64,000 bases of DNA from Actinomycetota bacterium (GCA_047519745.1 JAPVSJ010000109.1:6326-70325); one strand, 5' to 3'. Shown: positions 2,779 to 7,913, counted from the stretch's first letter. The notes: generated by a model not told the origin, from the letters alone. Numbers and translations: made by a program.

Positions 2779-2846
2779 GAGTCGAGGGTAGCCGACTTGA
2801 GAAAGATTTCATATCTGGCAAAAAAGGAGTAGTTTTTATAGGGCGT

Positions 2847-3584
2847 ATGTCAGCGAAAGCCTCAGCAGCCGTCGATCGAGTCGATTCGCTGGGAGCAAAC
2901 CGAGGCTCCGAGCTCGATGTGCGCGAGGGGGCGATGGAAGGTGTGCTGGCGGTCTGCGGCGAGGTCGGCTTCCGCGAGGCGTCCGTGCGCGCGATCCTCG
3001 AGCACAGCGGCGGGCACCGGGCGCAGTTCTACCAGCACTTCGAGAGCAAGGAGGACTGCTTCGCCCAGGCCTACGCGGTCTGGATCGAGCGGCTCTGCGT
3101 CAGCGTGCTCGAAGCGGCGGCGACCACACCCGGCTGGGAGGCCGGCGTGCGCGAGGCGATCGTGCGCCTCTTCCAGTTCGTCACCGCGCGGCCGGCGATC
3201 GCCCGGGCGCTCTTCGTCGAGGTTCAGATCGCCGGCGAGCCGGCGCTGGCCCGCCACGAGGCCGCGATCGAGCGCCTCGCCGCGGCGATCGACAGCGCCC
3301 GCGCCGACATCGAGCCGGCAGAGGCTCCGCCCGAGGCGACCGGCGTCTTCGTCGTCGGCGGGATCGAGTCCTGCGTCTGCGAGGCGCTCGGCGACGGCGA
3401 CCTGGACCGGCTCTGGAACGCCCTCCCCGAGCTGATGCACTTCGCGGCGGGCTCCTACTTCGGCAAGGAGGAGGCCGAAGGCGCCTTCGAGCGGGCGAGC
3501 ATCCTGCTGGAGCGCGAGCAAGCGCGCGAGGCACAGCGGACGCGACTGACCCAACAGGCAGAAGGGGAGTGCGGACCGGGATGA
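2847..3584 (+). CDS. TetR family transcriptional regulator (paralogue 3)
   Basis: GVLAVCGEVGFREASVRAILEHSGGHRAQFYQHFESKEDCFAQAYA. Divergent from paralogue 2 across an AT-rich 68-nt spacer. Confidence 0.85.
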   Translation: MSAKASAAVDRVDSLGANRGSELDVREGAMEGVLAVCGEVGFREASVRAILEHSGGHRAQFYQHFESKEDCFAQAYAVWIERLCVSVLEAAATTPGWEAGVREAIVRLFQFVTARPAIARALFVEVQIAGEPALARHEAAIERLAAAIDSARADIEPAEAPPEATGVFVVGGIESCVCEALGDGDLDRLWNALPELMHFAAGSYFGKEEAEGAFERASILLEREQAREAQRTRLTQQAEGECGPG

Positions 3585-4270
3585 CCGAGTTGCGACTGAT
3601 CGCCGGCACCGCGCTCGCCGAGCCAGCCGAGGTCGAGGCCACGCCGATGCTGCGACTCCCCCCCGGCCGCCACGGCATTCCCGCCGACCTGGTTCGCGCG
3701 CACCAGCGCCTGCGCCTGCTCGAGGCAGCGGCGGCGGCCGTCGCCGAGCAGGGCTACGGCCGCATCACCGCGGCCCGCGTGACCGAGCTGGCCGGCGTCT
3801 CCAGCCGCACCTTCTACCAGCACTTCGAGGACCTTTGGGCATGCCTGCTGGCCGCGTATGAGACCGAGGCGAGCCGGCTCTGCCAGGAGATCGAGGGCGC
3901 CTGCGCGGCGCTGGTCGAGCAGCGCGGACCGATCGTCGAAGCGGACCGGCGCGGCCGGGCGCGGGCCGGCATCGCCGCAGCGCTCGGCTTCCTCGCCGCC
4001 GAGCCCGACGTCGCCCGCCTGCTCAGCGCCGAGCCGCCGCCGCAGATCGCGGCGCTCAGCGGCGCCCGCCGCGACCTGATCGAACGCCTCGGCGCGATGC
4101 TGCGCGAAGTGCTCACCGACCCGGCCGGGGCGACGCCGCTGCCGGGCCTCGAGCGCCGCCTGATCGGCGCCGCGCTGGCGCTGGTCTCGACCCGCGCCGC
4201 CACAGGCGACCCGCAGCGCCTGCGCGACCTCGAGCCGGAGCTGAGCGAGCTCCTCCTCGCCTCGCTCTGA
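3569..4270 (+). CDS. TetR family transcriptional regulator (paralogue 4)
   Basis: LPPGRHGIPADLVRAHQRLRLLEAAAAAVAEQGYGRITAARVTELAGVSSRTFYQHFEDLWACLLAAYE. 16-nt overlap with paralogue 3. Confidence 0.85.
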   Translation: MRTGMTELRLIAGTALAEPAEVEATPMLRLPPGRHGIPADLVRAHQRLRLLEAAAAAVAEQGYGRITAARVTELAGVSSRTFYQHFEDLWACLLAAYETEASRLCQEIEGACAALVEQRGPIVEADRRGRARAGIAAALGFLAAEPDVARLLSAEPPPQIAALSGARRDLIERLGAMLREVLTDPAGATPLPGLERRLIGAALALVSTRAATGDPQRLRDLEPELSELLLASL

Positions 4271-4299
4271 CAGGCGCCTCACGCTGTAAATTTGTCTAA

Positions 4300-4336
4300 G
4301 TGACGAAAGTCACGTATATCCCTTCAGTGTAGAAGC
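4300..4336. repeat. left copy of a 37-bp inverted repeat (partner at 7838-7874)
   Basis: gtgacgaaagtcacgtatatcccttcagtgtagaagc. The reverse complement of 7838-7874 is gtgactttcgtcacgtatatcccatcactgtagaagc. The six mismatches are the 4-nt hairpin loop plus two single bases. Confidence 0.85.
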
Positions 4337-4440
4337 GAAATCCGTCTCTGACGCGCCCTAGCTTCCTTTGCCGTCAACAGAAAAGCGGCCGGGGCGCTGC
4401 GTGAACAGCCCCCGGCCTGGCACAGGAAGGGGTACTTCCC

Positions 4441-4692
4441 ATGCAAGGCCAGCCTAAACGGCGACGCGACAGCGACCTACGCGCACAACGCGTCGTGCTC
4501 AGCTACGTGCTCGACCTGCACCCGGTCAAGCCATCGATCCCGGCCCTCGTCCACGACCTCGTAGAGGATGCAAGCGACACCTACGAGCGCGCCATACGAG
4601 ACCTGACCGGCATAGGGCTGCTCGACTGCGAGGGCGGCATCGTCGCCCCCACGCAGGCAGCCCTTCGCTTCGACCGCATCTCCTCGACGTGA
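4441..4692 (+). CDS. small hypothetical protein (possible winged-helix), coupled to the downstream XRE gene
   Basis: 83-aa ORF whose stop overlaps the GTG start of the next gene (GTGA). No family motif that I can name. Confidence 0.5.
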   Translation: MQGQPKRRRDSDLRAQRVVLSYVLDLHPVKPSIPALVHDLVEDASDTYERAIRDLTGIGLLDCEGGIVAPTQAALRFDRISST

Positions 4693-5003
4693 ACGTCGCA
4701 CGGCGCTTCGGCTCGAACCTCGCCCGCTGTCGTCAGCAGGCAGGGCTGTCTCAGGAAGAGCTTGGCAACCGAGCCAGCCTCCACCGGACCGCCATCGGTC
4801 TACTGGAGAGGGGCGCGCGGATGCCCCGCATCGACACGCTGATCAAGCTGGCCGTCGCGCTCGACATCGACCCCGCCGACTTGCTGAAGGGGATCGACTG
4901 GAAGCCCGGTGAGACCGTCAAGGGGCAGTTCATCGAAACCGACGTGCCGGGTCTGGGCATCGTCCATCGACGGTTTGAGGTGGAGCGGGAGGGCGATGGG
5001 TAG
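4689..5003 (+). CDS. XRE family helix-turn-helix transcriptional regulator
   Basis: LSQEELGNRASLHRTAIGLLERGARMPRIDTLIKLAVALDIDPADLL is a Cro/C1-type HTH. Confidence 0.85.
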   Translation: MNVARRFGSNLARCRQQAGLSQEELGNRASLHRTAIGLLERGARMPRIDTLIKLAVALDIDPADLLKGIDWKPGETVKGQFIETDVPGLGIVHRRFEVEREGDG

Positions 5004-5043
5004 CCGCAGCGGTAGCGCTGCGCTTCATTGCGAGTCGAAGCCC

Positions 5044-5076
5044 AAAAAAGAAACGGACCACCGAGGTGGTCCGTTC
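5044..5076 (-). terminator. intrinsic terminator downstream of tRNA-Thr
   Basis: Read on the minus strand: aacggaccacc-tcg-gtggtccgtt hairpin followed by tttcttttttggg. Confidence 0.7.
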
Positions 5077-5242
5077 CAAGACTGCTCTGAGTGATGTGGT
5101 GAGGCAGTCCGTCGCCGGACGACCCTGCACGCTCAGCCCAGAGACACCTTTCGTAGGTGTCGCCAGTCTATCGAAGATTGACCATTGTCAAGCGAATTGC
5201 AACAATCATTACAAGACAATTTAGGCAGCCGTGCTATATGAA

Positions 5243-5315
5243 TCCGCCCGGCAGGATTCGAACCTGCGACCTCAACCCTACGAAAGGTGCGCTCTGTCCA
5301 CTGAGCTACGGGCGG
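5243..5315 (-). tRNA. tRNA-Thr (anticodon CGT)
   Basis: Manual cloverleaf on the reverse strand: CCGCCCG-TA-GCTC-AGTGGACA-GAGC-G-CACCT-TTCGTAG-GGTTG-AGGTC-GCAGG-TTCGAAT-CCTGC-CGGGCGG-A. Perfect 7-bp acceptor, canonical T arm, U33 and A37. One C-U mismatch in the anticodon stem and an unusual C1-G72 pair. CCA is not encoded. Confidence 0.8.
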
Positions 5316-5626
5316 ACGCTTCACTTCCCTGGTCAGGAAGCTTCTCGATTGTAGTGTGCGTGCAGGGATAAAAGCCAGGAATCAAGTCAAAATTACTGAA
5401 ATTCACCTAGGGGTCAGCCCAAGGTTGAGGGATTTAGGTCGAGGGTTGGTGCCTAGTCTCAGGTAGAGGTTGAGAGTCCTCAAGGAACGCTTGAGACCTC
5501 GAATCGGCAAGCACCGAGGCGCGTAGACTGTGCTTTGCGTGAAGCGGATGCAGAAAACCCAGCCCAAGCAGGGAAAGCCAGTCGAGATTCCGGTCCCCAC
5601 CAAAGGGGACTTCGACGTGGCCCTCT

Positions 5627-5833
5627 CTAAGGTCGCTCCGCCAGCAAGTCGTAAACGCCCTGGCGGGAAAGACCGGCCTCAGAAGCGATCTGGGTAACCG
5701 GGACCCCGGCGTCCTGCGCGTCCTTGCAGTAGCGCTGTAGTTCATCGGTTGCCTTGTGGCGGGCGGCGTCGGCCCGCTCGCGACTCTTGGCGGCTCGCCG
5801 GATGCCCTTGATTGCGGCGGTGGCGTCTTTCAT
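5627..5833 (-). CDS. small HTH protein, stop/start-coupled to the IS1595-family transposase (possible passenger gene)
   Basis: 68 aa. The C-terminal VPVTQIASEAGLSRQGVYDLLAERP resembles a Hin/resolvase-type HTH. Its start overlaps the transposase stop by 4 nt. Confidence 0.55.
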   Translation of the reverse strand: MKDATAAIKGIRRAAKSRERADAARHKATDELQRYCKDAQDAGVPVTQIASEAGLSRQGVYDLLAERP

Positions 5834-6777
5834 CGCGGGGAACGAGCAGCGTTATCGAGCAGGGCGAAGAACATCCCGCGATGGTCGCGGCGCTGGTTGT
5901 AGCGCCAGGCATACTCGTCCAGGTAGGACTGAAGCCACTTCTGCGACACCTTCTTGTAGGTGCCACGCATTCCCGTCTTGAGGTTGCCGAAGAAGCCCTC
6001 GATCGTGTTCGTGTGGATGTCGCCGTGGACGTAGACGCCCGCCGAGTGGTTGATGGTGCTGTGGCCTGCGTACTCGCGGCCAAGCGGCCGGTAGGAGCGC
6101 CAGTCGTCCGTGAAGATGATCGAGTTCGGGTTGACGTTCGCCCGCACGGCTCCACTCAGCGGCTCGCCTCGGCGAGACTTGATCACGCGCAGCTTGACCC
6201 GCCCGCCGCGCTCGACCATGCCGAGTACGGAGACCTGGCGCTCGCGCCAGTTAGCGGCTTCTTTTTTGGTCATTCGCGGCCCGCGTGGGCGACCGTGGAC
6301 GCCGGTCTCGTCAACCTCGACCTTGCCCTTCAACGGTTTGGCGTCGTCTTTCATCAGCTCGTTGCGGATCTTGTTGAACATGCGCCAGGCGGTCTTGTAG
6401 TGGACGCCCAGCTCGCGCTCTAGCTGTTTGGCGGATATGCCGCATCGCGTGCTGGCCATGAGGTACATGGCGTAGAACCAAAGCTGAAGCGAGGTTGAGG
6501 ACTTGTGGAAGATCGTGCCGGCCGTGGGATGGACGTGGTGCCCGCAGCCCGTGCAGGTCCACGACTGCCGCCCCTGCTTGGTCGCGTAGCGCTTGAAGAC
6601 GCGCTCAGAGCCGCACTTGGGGCAATAGGCGTGTTCGCCGTCCGGGGAGTGCCGGGTCCGCCACAGATGCTCCAGGCAGGCGGCGTCGTCGGGGAACTGC
6701 CGCTGGAACTCGGTCAGCGAATACTCGGAGGTCGAGGACTTCGCTCGCTTCGGTTCGTGGCGGTTTGCCGGTGGCAT
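5830..6777 (-). CDS. IS1595-family (ISXO2-like) DDE transposase
   Basis: N-terminal Zn-ribbon CPKCGS...CTGCGHH, then VEVDETGVHG..., IFTDDWRSY..., HSTINHS...HTNTIEGFFGNLKTGMRGTYKKVSQKWLQSYLDEYAWRYNQR. This is the characteristic IS1595 DDE-domain layout. Confidence 0.9.
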   Translation of the reverse strand: MPPANRHEPKRAKSSTSEYSLTEFQRQFPDDAACLEHLWRTRHSPDGEHAYCPKCGSERVFKRYATKQGRQSWTCTGCGHHVHPTAGTIFHKSSTSLQLWFYAMYLMASTRCGISAKQLERELGVHYKTAWRMFNKIRNELMKDDAKPLKGKVEVDETGVHGRPRGPRMTKKEAANWRERQVSVLGMVERGGRVKLRVIKSRRGEPLSGAVRANVNPNSIIFTDDWRSYRPLGREYAGHSTINHSAGVYVHGDIHTNTIEGFFGNLKTGMRGTYKKVSQKWLQSYLDEYAWRYNQRRDHRGMFFALLDNAARSPR

Positions 6778-6817
6778 GGTGTAAAGCTACTTGACAACGA
6801 ACCAGATGTCAAGACGC

Positions 6818-6847
6818 TTGACATAAAGTTTGAAGAGCGCTTAGGCT
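6818..6847 (+). promoter_or_regulatory. candidate promoter for the 6880-7794 gene
   Basis: TTGACA (6818-6823), an 18-nt spacer, then TAGGCT (6842-6847, TAnnnT type). A second TTGACA at 6791-6796 forms the palindrome cttgac-N12-gtcaag. Confidence 0.3.
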
Positions 6848-6879
6848 GTGGCCTGGTGGGGAAGCCTTCGCTAGAGAGC

Positions 6880-7794
6880 GTGGACCTGAAGCTCAACCGG
6901 GCGAAGGATCACTTCTACGCTCTCACGGAAGACATCAAGAAGTTCCAGTCCGATCCAGACAGCTACAGCCTCGCGCTTGAGCGACAGCCGAACCGTGGTG
7001 GCATCTGCAAAGTCGCCGATGTGCATCTTCCCCCAGTCGAGTTGGGGATTCTCATCGGGGAGTGCGTGCATCAATACAGGTCCGCCCTTGACCATCTTCT
7101 GTTTCAACTCGTCCTCGCCAATAGCCGCGGACGCTTGGCCCCCAGAATCGAGAGACGAGCTGAATTCCCGATCTTCAGCAGCGGTCCCAAGTTCAGAGGG
7201 AAGAGAAAGGGAGTGCCGTCGCCAGGTAGCGGACGGGCCAAGATCCAGGACATCGCGCCAGCGGCACAGGCAGCTATCGAGCGGCTCCAGCCGTATCACC
7301 GCCGGAAGAACCCCGGAACGCGCAGTCTTGGGCAACTTCAAGAACTCTCGAACATCGACAAGCACCGGCTCCTCCACGTCACCTATTCGGCGTTTAGGGG
7401 CTCTACTTTCGACTTCGAGACGCGGAACGTTGCGGCGATCGATGGCTTCTACTTCAAGGCCGGGCCATTCAAACGAAATGCAACTATCGCCGCATGGCAG
7501 GCCATTCCTGCTGACCCCCGCTTTGGCGTGGAGGTGCAGATGAAAGCAGAGATCCTGACCGACATAACCTTCGGCAAGGCCAGCCCCGCTAGGTCTGCTC
7601 GGGGGCAGTCGGTAGTGAAGACGCTTTACGACGTCGGCGCTTTCATCGCGTCCGACGTGCTGCCCCCCTTGTGTGGATTGCTCGGCCTCTCCAGCGAGTT
7701 CAAGCCGGGCAAACTGATCGACATGGAGACTGTTCCAGTCGAGGATCGAGACGCCATGTCTGAGAGCGTCCGAGTCGCGAATCTGAGCATCTGA
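6880..7794 (+). CDS. hypothetical protein with an Rx4H (HEPN-like) motif; start uncertain (GTG 6856 or 6880)
   Basis: Lower-GC ORF. The upstream part of the track ORF (from 6505) overlaps the transposase gene and is rejected. Motifs: ECVHQYRSALDHLLFQL (R-x4-H) and LSNIDKHRLLH. Confidence 0.6.
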   Translation: MDLKLNRAKDHFYALTEDIKKFQSDPDSYSLALERQPNRGGICKVADVHLPPVELGILIGECVHQYRSALDHLLFQLVLANSRGRLAPRIERRAEFPIFSSGPKFRGKRKGVPSPGSGRAKIQDIAPAAQAAIERLQPYHRRKNPGTRSLGQLQELSNIDKHRLLHVTYSAFRGSTFDFETRNVAAIDGFYFKAGPFKRNATIAAWQAIPADPRFGVEVQMKAEILTDITFGKASPARSARGQSVVKTLYDVGAFIASDVLPPLCGLLGLSSEFKPGKLIDMETVPVEDRDAMSESVRVANLSI

Positions 7795-7837
7795 TCCCTG
7801 CTCAGACACGCCCTACCTAGCCCTTCCGAGCCGCTGA

Positions 7838-7874
7838 GCTTCTACAGTGATGGGATATACGTGACGAAAGTCAC
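7838..7874. repeat. right copy of the 37-bp inverted repeat (partner at 4300-4336)
   Basis: gcttctacagtgatgggatatacgtgacgaaagtcac; see the left copy. Confidence 0.85.
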
Positions 7875-7913
7875 AGCCGCCCTGCACACCCGCGTTCGAA
7901 GGTAGGCGATTAC

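Follow-up and report, generated by a model that had tools for sequence, protein, structure and literature searches.

A 3.55-kb IS1595-family transposon in a GTGA-N6-TCAC palindrome upstream of a PAS/MBL operon of an Actinomycetota bacterium

What is the segment between positions 4300 and 7874 of a 64,000-nucleotide stretch of DNA from an Actinomycetota bacterium (GCA_047519745.1 JAPVSJ010000109.1:6326-70325; the whole stretch is referred to here as the window), and where exactly does it end? It is bracketed by 37-nt inverted repeats, both of which carry the same hairpin, GTGAC-GAAA-GTCAC, on the plus strand. A first-pass annotation had offered the terminal repeats of a defunct composite or integrative element, the recombination sites of an invertible segment, or two copies of an operator module. 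Comparison with related genomes indicates that positions 4311-7863 are a 3,553-bp (3.55-kb) unit transposon of the IS1595 family, flanked by a copied host target, a reading to which a probability of about 0.93 is given.

The inverted arms (4300-4336 and 7838-7874), each of 37 nt, are complementary at 31 of 37 positions (84%), as annotated. Their 28-nt core occurs twice in the window and in none of 100 dinucleotide-preserving shuffles, and in the genome to which the window belongs (G000, a 2.54-Mb assembly in 129 contigs) it was found at ≤3 mismatches only at these two places. The repeat is not a dispersed intergenic sequence unrelated to the boundaries of the segment. A looser scan detected a third, solo end in the same genome (C37:31652-31677), which is diverged (CACGCTTATCCCTTCTTTGTAGAAGC) and abuts GTG-ACCCAGAT-CAC. 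Neither a partner end nor a transposase was found nearby, and this end was probably left behind by another member of the family.

The boundaries emerge from relatives in which the site is empty. A BLAST search of 40 relatives with positions 2800-9300 as the query recovered genomes with an identical gene order that have neither the repeats nor the insert, and in G017, G008, G005 and G004 only 150-390 bp separate the TetR flank from the PAS flank. In these four and in G013 and G023 the palindrome is present exactly once, as gctgtaaattgcctaa-GTGACGAA(A/C)GTCAC-agcc...cgcgttcgagggta, and the spacer of G019 holds a diverged version of the palindrome context. The left junction in the window reads ...gtctaa-GTGACGAAAGT/CACGTATATCCC and the right junction GGGATATACGTG/ACGAAAGTCAC-agcc. 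Comparison of these junctions with the empty sites therefore places the element at 4311-7863, identifies ACGAAAGT as the duplicated target and assigns the outer GTG and CAC to host DNA. The element entered a palindrome native to the host, GTG-ACGAAAGT-CAC, which precedes the PAS/MBL operon by 40 nt. Each 37-mer is thus a 26-nt transposon end extended outward by the 8-nt duplication and 3 nt of host flank, and the hairpin inside the inverted repeat (TAAGTGACGAAAGTCAC at 4297-4313 and TACGTGACGAAAGTCAC at 7858-7874, repeat family D16) is direct because the 8-mer is a direct duplication. Because the target has the same outer triplets as the element has tips, CAC and GTG, a complete GTGACGAAAGTCAC is rebuilt at each junction. 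What holds up of the proposed pair of operator modules is the outer 14 bp, a native conserved palindrome duplicated by the insertion; the remainder does not. The features of the region, in which HTH and MBL stand for helix-turn-helix and metallo-beta-lactamase and ORF for open reading frame, are:

3569-4270, plus strand: second TetR-family gene of the left flank, host core (Pfam TetR_N, E=3.5e-08); adjoins the PAS gene in element-free relatives
4300-4302: host GTG triplet forming the left edge of the native target palindrome, also seen at the empty sites of 6 relatives
4303-4310: left 8-bp target-site duplication, ACGAAAGT, identical to 7864-7871 and present once in empty sites
4311-4336, plus strand: left terminal inverted repeat, CACGTATATCCCTTCAGTGTAGAAGC, 24/26 identical to the reverse complement of 7838-7863
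4441-4692, plus strand: ORF83, a small conserved element protein, with homologues beside the same element end at 8/9 other loci (tblastn)
4689-5003, plus strand: XRE-family HTH regulator of the element (Pfam HTH_3, E=1.7e-13)
5004-5626, minus strand: middle cargo slot, with a tRNA-like gene (5242-5316) and a terminator-like hairpin (5050-5077), from ARAGORN, Rfam and a terminator scan
5627-5833, minus strand: ORF68, a small HTH protein (PHROG 686 'HTH DNA binding protein', E=3.5e-08)
5830-6777, minus strand: IS1595-family DDE transposase, 315 aa, uninterrupted (Pfam DDE_Tnp_IS1595, E=1.4e-36)
6856-7794, plus strand: right cargo slot, ORF310, an Rx4H HEPN-like protein; start codon uncertain, 6856 or 6880
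7838-7863, minus strand: right terminal inverted repeat, read inward as CACGTATATCCCATCACTGTAGAAGC, forming the 26-bp pair with the left end
7864-7871: right 8-bp target-site duplication, ACGAAAGT, identical to the left copy
7872-7874: host CAC triplet forming the right edge of the native target palindrome, as in the empty sites of relatives
7914-9213, plus strand: right-flank host operon, PAS (7914-8327) and MBL-fold hydrolase (8329-9213), from Pfam PAS and Lactamase_B_2

What the first-pass annotation had described was recovered, including the tRNA at 5242-5316 on the minus strand, the IS1595 transposase, the XRE HTH protein, the TetR genes on the left and the PAS/MBL genes on the right. The repeats lie 105 nt from the gene at 4441 and 40 nt from that at 7914. 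G+C is patchy, at 0.51-0.69 inside the segment and 0.70-0.80 in the flanks. The PAS/MBL operon, which starts 40 nt downstream of the palindrome, is conserved beside the TetR genes in relatives. The assembly across the segment is sound, as a 7,701-nt contig of sequencing run X1, which may be the source sample, covers the whole of this region with zero differences.

The same terminal repeat bounds transposase-bearing elements in relatives belonging to the genus. Nine other element-bearing loci share the architecture of the window copy, namely an end, ORF83, XRE, variable DNA, ORF68 and the transposase reading back, further variable DNA and an end. When the window proteins were used in tblastn searches, the transposase and ORF68 were matched in 9/9 of these loci and ORF83 and XRE in 8/9 each; there was no match for XRE in G007, and it is interrupted in L024. 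The window transposase is 96% identical to that of the G007 copy. Genes within the element overlap by four bases in two places, at the ORF83 stop and XRE start (GTGA) and at the transposase stop and ORF68 start (ATGA). ORF83 had no match in Pfam, NCBIfam, PADLOC or PHROGs, and regulatory roles for ORF83, XRE and ORF68 may be supposed. A promoter scan returned a single sigma-70-like match (5178-5206), no more than in shuffles, and revealed no outward promoter; the tRNA was the sole match above threshold in an Rfam scan of 3500-9000. ORF83-XRE-like pairs also occur elsewhere in G000 without an IS1595 transposase (C84:11296-11768 and C92:4019-4497; 41-43% and 62-63% identity), and the pair is therefore a module that exists outside this transposon too.

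Assignment to the IS1595 family, at family level, is based on the transposase and the ends. The catalytic domain matches Pfam PF12762 (DDE_Tnp_IS1595) with E=1.4e-36 over 1-153 of 153, and the protein scores 196.8 bits against NCBIfam NF033547 (transpos_IS1595), for which the cut-off is 75. The N-terminus carries four cysteines (CPKC...CTGC at residues 52-78), and an E-x6-K following NTIEGFF suggests, by eye, a DDEK-type motif. The insertion duplicated 8 bp, and the 26-bp terminal inverted repeats agree at 24 of 26 positions. In the IS1595 family 8-bp duplications are usual and an N-terminal zinc finger or ribbon is present in all groups except IS1016, as far as the available part of the published account goes (PMC8101967). 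A strict insertion sequence (IS) carries a single gene, and here the ends enclose at least 4 additional genes and a tRNA, making this a transposon or 'IS with passengers' rather than a plain IS. Boundaries, an 8-bp duplication and end repeats are ordinary textbook features of a transposon. What goes beyond the ordinary is the conserved accessory gene set, the two cargo slots and, above all, a sharp GTGA-N6-TCAC rule with regeneration and apparent re-use of the target.

That rule was derived from an exact-pattern scan for the element ends, using one genome per species, which returned at least 137 loci; the counts given here are those of a sample, the matches listed. Nearly all of the listed loci are in metagenome-assembled genomes (MAGs) of soil Solirubrobacterales, and the few from unrelated taxa, which have no CAC tip, look like chance matches. 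Perfect 8-bp direct duplications flank 25 of the 26 same-contig end pairs among the matches listed, the 8-mers being exact reverse complements when read inward; the 26th pair is a tandem arrangement. In L039/L150 and L051/L073 the 8-mer is deviant at its first or last base and the opposite end shows the mirrored deviation, whereas the mutated element tip of L079, GAC, is not mirrored in the flank of its partner. L093/L116 has a non-canonical target, with CCG and GTC as outer triplets, yet a perfect 8-mer duplication. From these deviant cases it follows that the duplication is exactly 8 bp, that the element tips are CAC...GTG and that the outer GTG is target DNA. The CAC tip was found at 128 of the 138 ends listed. 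The target consensus was taken from the 116 distinct listed flanks that do not abut another copy, and GTG is present at -11 to -9 in 107 of these, A at -8 in 100 and T at -1 in 105. The full GTGA..T pattern occurs in 92/116 and is immediately preceded by T in 62/116. Since the central six target bases are free, the GNRA-type loop, to which attention had been drawn as a feature, is incidental to this site, and other insertion sites have unrelated central 6-mers. The family prefers GTGA-N6-TCAC targets upstream of genes, in either orientation.

Orthologous sites were used more than once. The TetR-PAS site is filled in G007 and G009, where the element is flipped relative to the window, and, judged by the flanks, in several further MAGs, while closer relatives are empty there (G023, with a flank 93% identical, and G017, 91%). 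In an unrelated soil run, X4, a relative has 1,521 other letters in place of the element. A second recurrent site, in the spacer between TetR and MMPL transporter genes (tetR-mmpL), precedes the MMPL start by 42 nt. No element occupies it in 11 relatives or in G000 (C37:5440); a native GTGA-N6-TCAC is present there in 9 of the 11 and in G000, and a GTGC variant in the remaining 2. In G012, G016 and G024 the site is occupied, with an 8-mer duplication particular to each species and with both orientations represented. Two further insertions are upstream of a MarR-MFS pair and upstream of a DUF1802 gene. The target palindromes are single-copy, 40-125 nt upstream of genes, and have variable centres. 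Among the matches listed, 10/126 distinct ends abut the end of another copy across one shared 8-mer; for example, L151/L152 are two tandem elements with a common duplication and in L173 two ends face away around one palindrome. This is the outcome expected of insertion into a rebuilt junction palindrome, and the family appears to re-use the palindromes regenerated at its junctions.

The spacer between the second TetR gene and the palindrome is variable. In most relatives (L027, L028, L031, L032 and L033) it contains an opposite-strand stretch of ~0.3-0.4 kb with repeated GTCGAAGCGCTTGTCGAC-type units, which may be a gene for a small repeat-rich protein. This stretch is absent from G000, a loss that is possibly, though not necessarily, connected with the insertion; fragments are kept in G005 and G004.

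Together with what is known of the family, these observations are consistent with the following course of events. The DDE transposase (5830-6777, minus strand) would recognise the 26-bp terminal repeats with their tips 5'-CAC...GTG-3' and join them to target DNA cut with an 8-bp stagger, the repair of which would duplicate 8 bp; this chemistry is predicted from family membership. The element would have landed in a pre-existing GTG-ACGAAAGT-CAC between the TetR gene and the PAS/MBL operon. With tips that match the outer triplets, the full target palindrome would be rebuilt at both junctions, where later copies could re-use it.

Other explanations of the segment have to be weighed against a transposon with a copied target. 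In an invertible segment, the 37-bp repeats would be crossover sites at which a site-specific invertase or homologous recombination flips 4337-7837. This would account for the opposite orientation at the identical site in G007 and G009 and for a 287-nt contig of X4 that joins 4323 to 7852 on opposite strands (a single contig, depth 3.5, differing by 5 letters and 1 gap across the 135 nt aligned to 4323-4457). ORF68 has weak matches to resolvase/invertase HTH models (Pfam HTH_7, E=0.0086; PHROG 125, E=0.0021), but these cover the HTH only, and no serine or tyrosine recombinase catalytic domain was found in the ORFs scanned. Contigs of the probable source runs, X1-X3, hold the filled site in the window orientation only, neither an empty nor an inverted form being seen, though contigs drop rare variants. 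The distribution of insertions at this site, which is empty in the closest relatives (G023 and G017) and filled in more distant ones, fits independent insertions, and both orientations occur at the tetR-mmpL site too, as expected for a symmetric target. The flipped copies are better explained in this way, and an invertible segment, as once proposed for this locus, is very improbable.

Alternatively, the whole 37-mer including GTGA-N6-TCAC could belong to the element as a long terminal repeat with a variable spacer, in which case there would be no target preference. Nearly every end among the matches listed does read GTGA-N6-TCACG. However, the empty sites at both recurrent loci already hold one full palindrome, the 8-mers within each element are direct and not inverted repeats, and L093/L116 has no outer GTG at either end and still shows a perfect 8-bp duplication, which leaves this explanation with even less to recommend it than inversion. 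Least credible of all is a relic of a tRNA-targeting integrative element or composite transposon, with the tRNA as an old attachment site and the repeats as decayed attachment-site or IS ends. The tRNA gene inside the segment and the patchy G+C profile point that way, but there is no integrase among the ORFs scanned, and only a single transposase gene and a single pair of ends are present. Moreover, the tRNA is in the variable middle slot, where other copies have GAF or RelA_SpoT genes, and its flanks are unmatched in 151 genomes; the transposase ORF is intact and the duplication perfect. The repeats are indeed ends of a mobile element, one of the possibilities raised in the first-pass annotation, but of a single IS1595-family unit transposon, and the full 315-aa transposase, the 24/26 end identity and the perfect 8-bp duplication make it look intact rather than defunct.

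Some points weigh against the identification as an IS1595-family transposon with a sharp target rule, or limit it. The zinc-ribbon models fall below their cut-offs (24.0 versus 25.4 for Pfam PF12760 and 18.3 versus 28 for NCBIfam IS1_IS1595_Zn), and only one full copy is present in the 93.8%-complete assembly. Transposition was not observed and the source-run contigs show the filled site only, so that current activity is something we infer. Some of the listed rows are the same genomes as the G-numbered relatives and hence are not independent of them, and the intergenic bias of the insertions may in part reflect purifying selection and not target choice.

The two slots of the element hold different DNA in different copies. 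In the window, the tRNA-like gene of the middle slot is called as tRNA-Thr(CGT) by ARAGORN, from the anticodon CGT, and scores 57.6 bits with the Rfam tRNA model. Over the acceptor, D and T arms its identity to host tRNA-Arg(CCG/TCT) genes is 82-85%; one mismatch and one wobble pair are present in the anticodon stem, and the acceptor stem drawn by ARAGORN has 8 bp. A separate, normal and dissimilar tRNA-Thr(CGT) is encoded on C73 of the genome. The strong terminator-like hairpin is 165 nt downstream of the tRNA-like gene. The flanks of this gene had no match in any other genome (151 of the genus searched), and elsewhere tRNA matches are confined to the bodies, at ≤88% identity, of tRNA-Val(GAC) and tRNA-Arg(CCG). 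The last ~85 nt of the slot, beside ORF68, match two other element copies. In the middle slots of L023 (G012:C1, 4307-5089) and L022 (G014:C107, 1358-2143) there is a gene for a RelA_SpoT-domain protein (E=1.8e-15, small alarmone-synthetase-like) or a GAF-domain protein. The G007 copy (L021, G007:C1), at the same TetR-PAS site, is 5.6 kb long and has a group II intron reverse transcriptase/maturase gene (3091-4794; RVT_1 1.9e-36, GIIM 1.3e-17) between an end and ORF83.

The right slot of the window copy predicts ORF310, a 312-aa protein with homologues in two other element copies (tblastn), whose ESM Atlas matches are confined to unnamed Actinomycetota clusters. The Rx4H motif that had been noted is present as RSALDH at residues 75-80 of the 6856-7794 product. 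In 41 sequences S76 and A77 of this Rx4-6H motif are nearly invariant and L78 and D79 invariant; R75 and H80 are the majority residues but are not among the ≥90% columns. An AlphaFold2 model of ORF310 (mean predicted local distance difference test score 87.5) gave no match at E≤0.001 in a Foldseek search of the PDB. The best VIA-align matches are HEPN domains, led by 4nqf_B (Z 8.8, root-mean-square deviation 3.3, 128 residues aligned) and followed by others at Z 6-7.6, and Z below ~13 is weak for helical bundles. The RelA_SpoT, GAF and HEPN-like genes suggest a cargo concerned with conflict or signalling, and it is conceivable that a tRNA carried beside a HEPN-like protein serves as a decoy or replacement tRNA.

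The form of the target raises the further question of whether the palindromes are operators of the host. At the TetR-PAS site the palindrome and ~16 nt upstream are conserved in six relatives and the remaining spacer is not, which suggests a cis-regulatory element. The operator consensus of CRP and GlxR is TGTGA-N6-TCACA, and the target consensus, (T/C)GTGA-N6-TCAC, is like it, the TetR-PAS site reading AGTGA...TCACA. A CRP orthologue is encoded in the host (G000 C21, a 233-aa ORF) with the helix GTSRESVSRF (an R-E-x-x-x-R recognition helix), a type which presumably reads GTGA, and its best solved relatives are the CRP of T. thermophilus (4ev0, 2.9e-33) and Crp of M. tuberculosis (3i54, 1.6e-31). 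On the other hand, the likeness is one of sequence alone, and the transposase by itself could impose a symmetric preference. The 49 GTGA-N6-TCAC sites in G000 are within the permuted-control range of 0-64 and hence not enriched genome-wide; their coding/intergenic split (24 'intergenic') is unusable, as the proxy based on ORFs and third-position G+C (GC3) classed only 55% of the genome as coding. In front of the CRP gene there is a half-site-like TGTGAG and no palindrome at ≤2 mismatches, which is uninformative on autoregulation. Identification of the target as a CRP operator is accordingly tentative, with the odds against it, and a mechanistic role of CRP or ORF68 in targeting is more doubtful still. 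In its broadest form, the proposal would be that the family seeks out, in front of host genes, operators of the CRP type, (T)GTGA-N6-TCAC(A), choosing them through DNA-bound or DNA-bending CRP or through ORF68, and acts as a shuttle for conflict-type genes. We regard this as unlikely. If it were true, an intact operator would be left before the host gene and a second gained at the other end of the element, limiting the damage of insertion, placing element genes under a global regulator of the host and creating fresh landing pads.

The MBL-fold protein (8329-9213) has sub-threshold similarity to cyclic nucleotide phosphodiesterases (E=0.0029 with Pfam PDEase_II; 28.1 bits with NCBIfam cyc_nuc_deg_phdiest, for which the cut-off is 400) and a stronger similarity to RNase Z. 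A CRP-type operator before its operon would make sense if it were a cAMP phosphodiesterase.

For annotation, exact transposon boundaries now replace a puzzling inverted repeat that contained a direct hairpin, and the tRNA and the Rx4H gene are shown to be cargo and not part of the core genome. DDE transposases of the IS1595 family are generally regarded as weakly selective. Unusual traits of this lineage are its sharp, symmetric 14-bp target rule, the regeneration of the target at both junctions, and repeated independent insertions at orthologous promoter-proximal sites in different soil Solirubrobacterales. A readable target code combined with defined cargo slots provides a natural system for the study of target capture. 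If the palindromes were shown to be CRP operators, the lineage would in addition exemplify, in nature, a transposon wired into a global regulon. A search of the open full-text literature found no account of such targeting by the IS1595 family, nor of a transposase that targets CRP sites.

Among known systems, the closest are the passenger-bearing elements of the IS1595 family itself (ISfinder subgroups ISNwi1+, ISPna2+ and ISNha5). The element described here shares with them a DDE_Tnp_IS1595 transposase, whose N-terminal four-cysteine segment is a putative ribbon, terminal repeats, an 8-bp duplication and extra genes, and differs in the recurrent ORF83, XRE and ORF68, the two defined cargo slots, the tips CAC...GTG and the strong preference for GTGA-N6-TCAC. 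In its targeting it resembles IS30, which inserts into symmetric hot spots and its own inverted repeats. Both are DDE elements that prefer a palindromic consensus, and in both the targets resemble or adjoin the element's own ends, giving rise to abutted copies. Here, however, the transposase is of another family, the target has 4 + 4 specified bases around an unconstrained 6-mer, 8 bp are duplicated, and each junction regains the palindrome. Insertion sequences directed to repetitive extragenic palindromic (REP) sequences, as described in the available parts of two reports (PMC1525189, PMC12288879), likewise hit short intergenic palindromes and use orthologous sites recurrently. The present targets, in comparison, are not a dispersed repeat family, and the enzyme is a DDE transposase and not an IS110-type recombinase.

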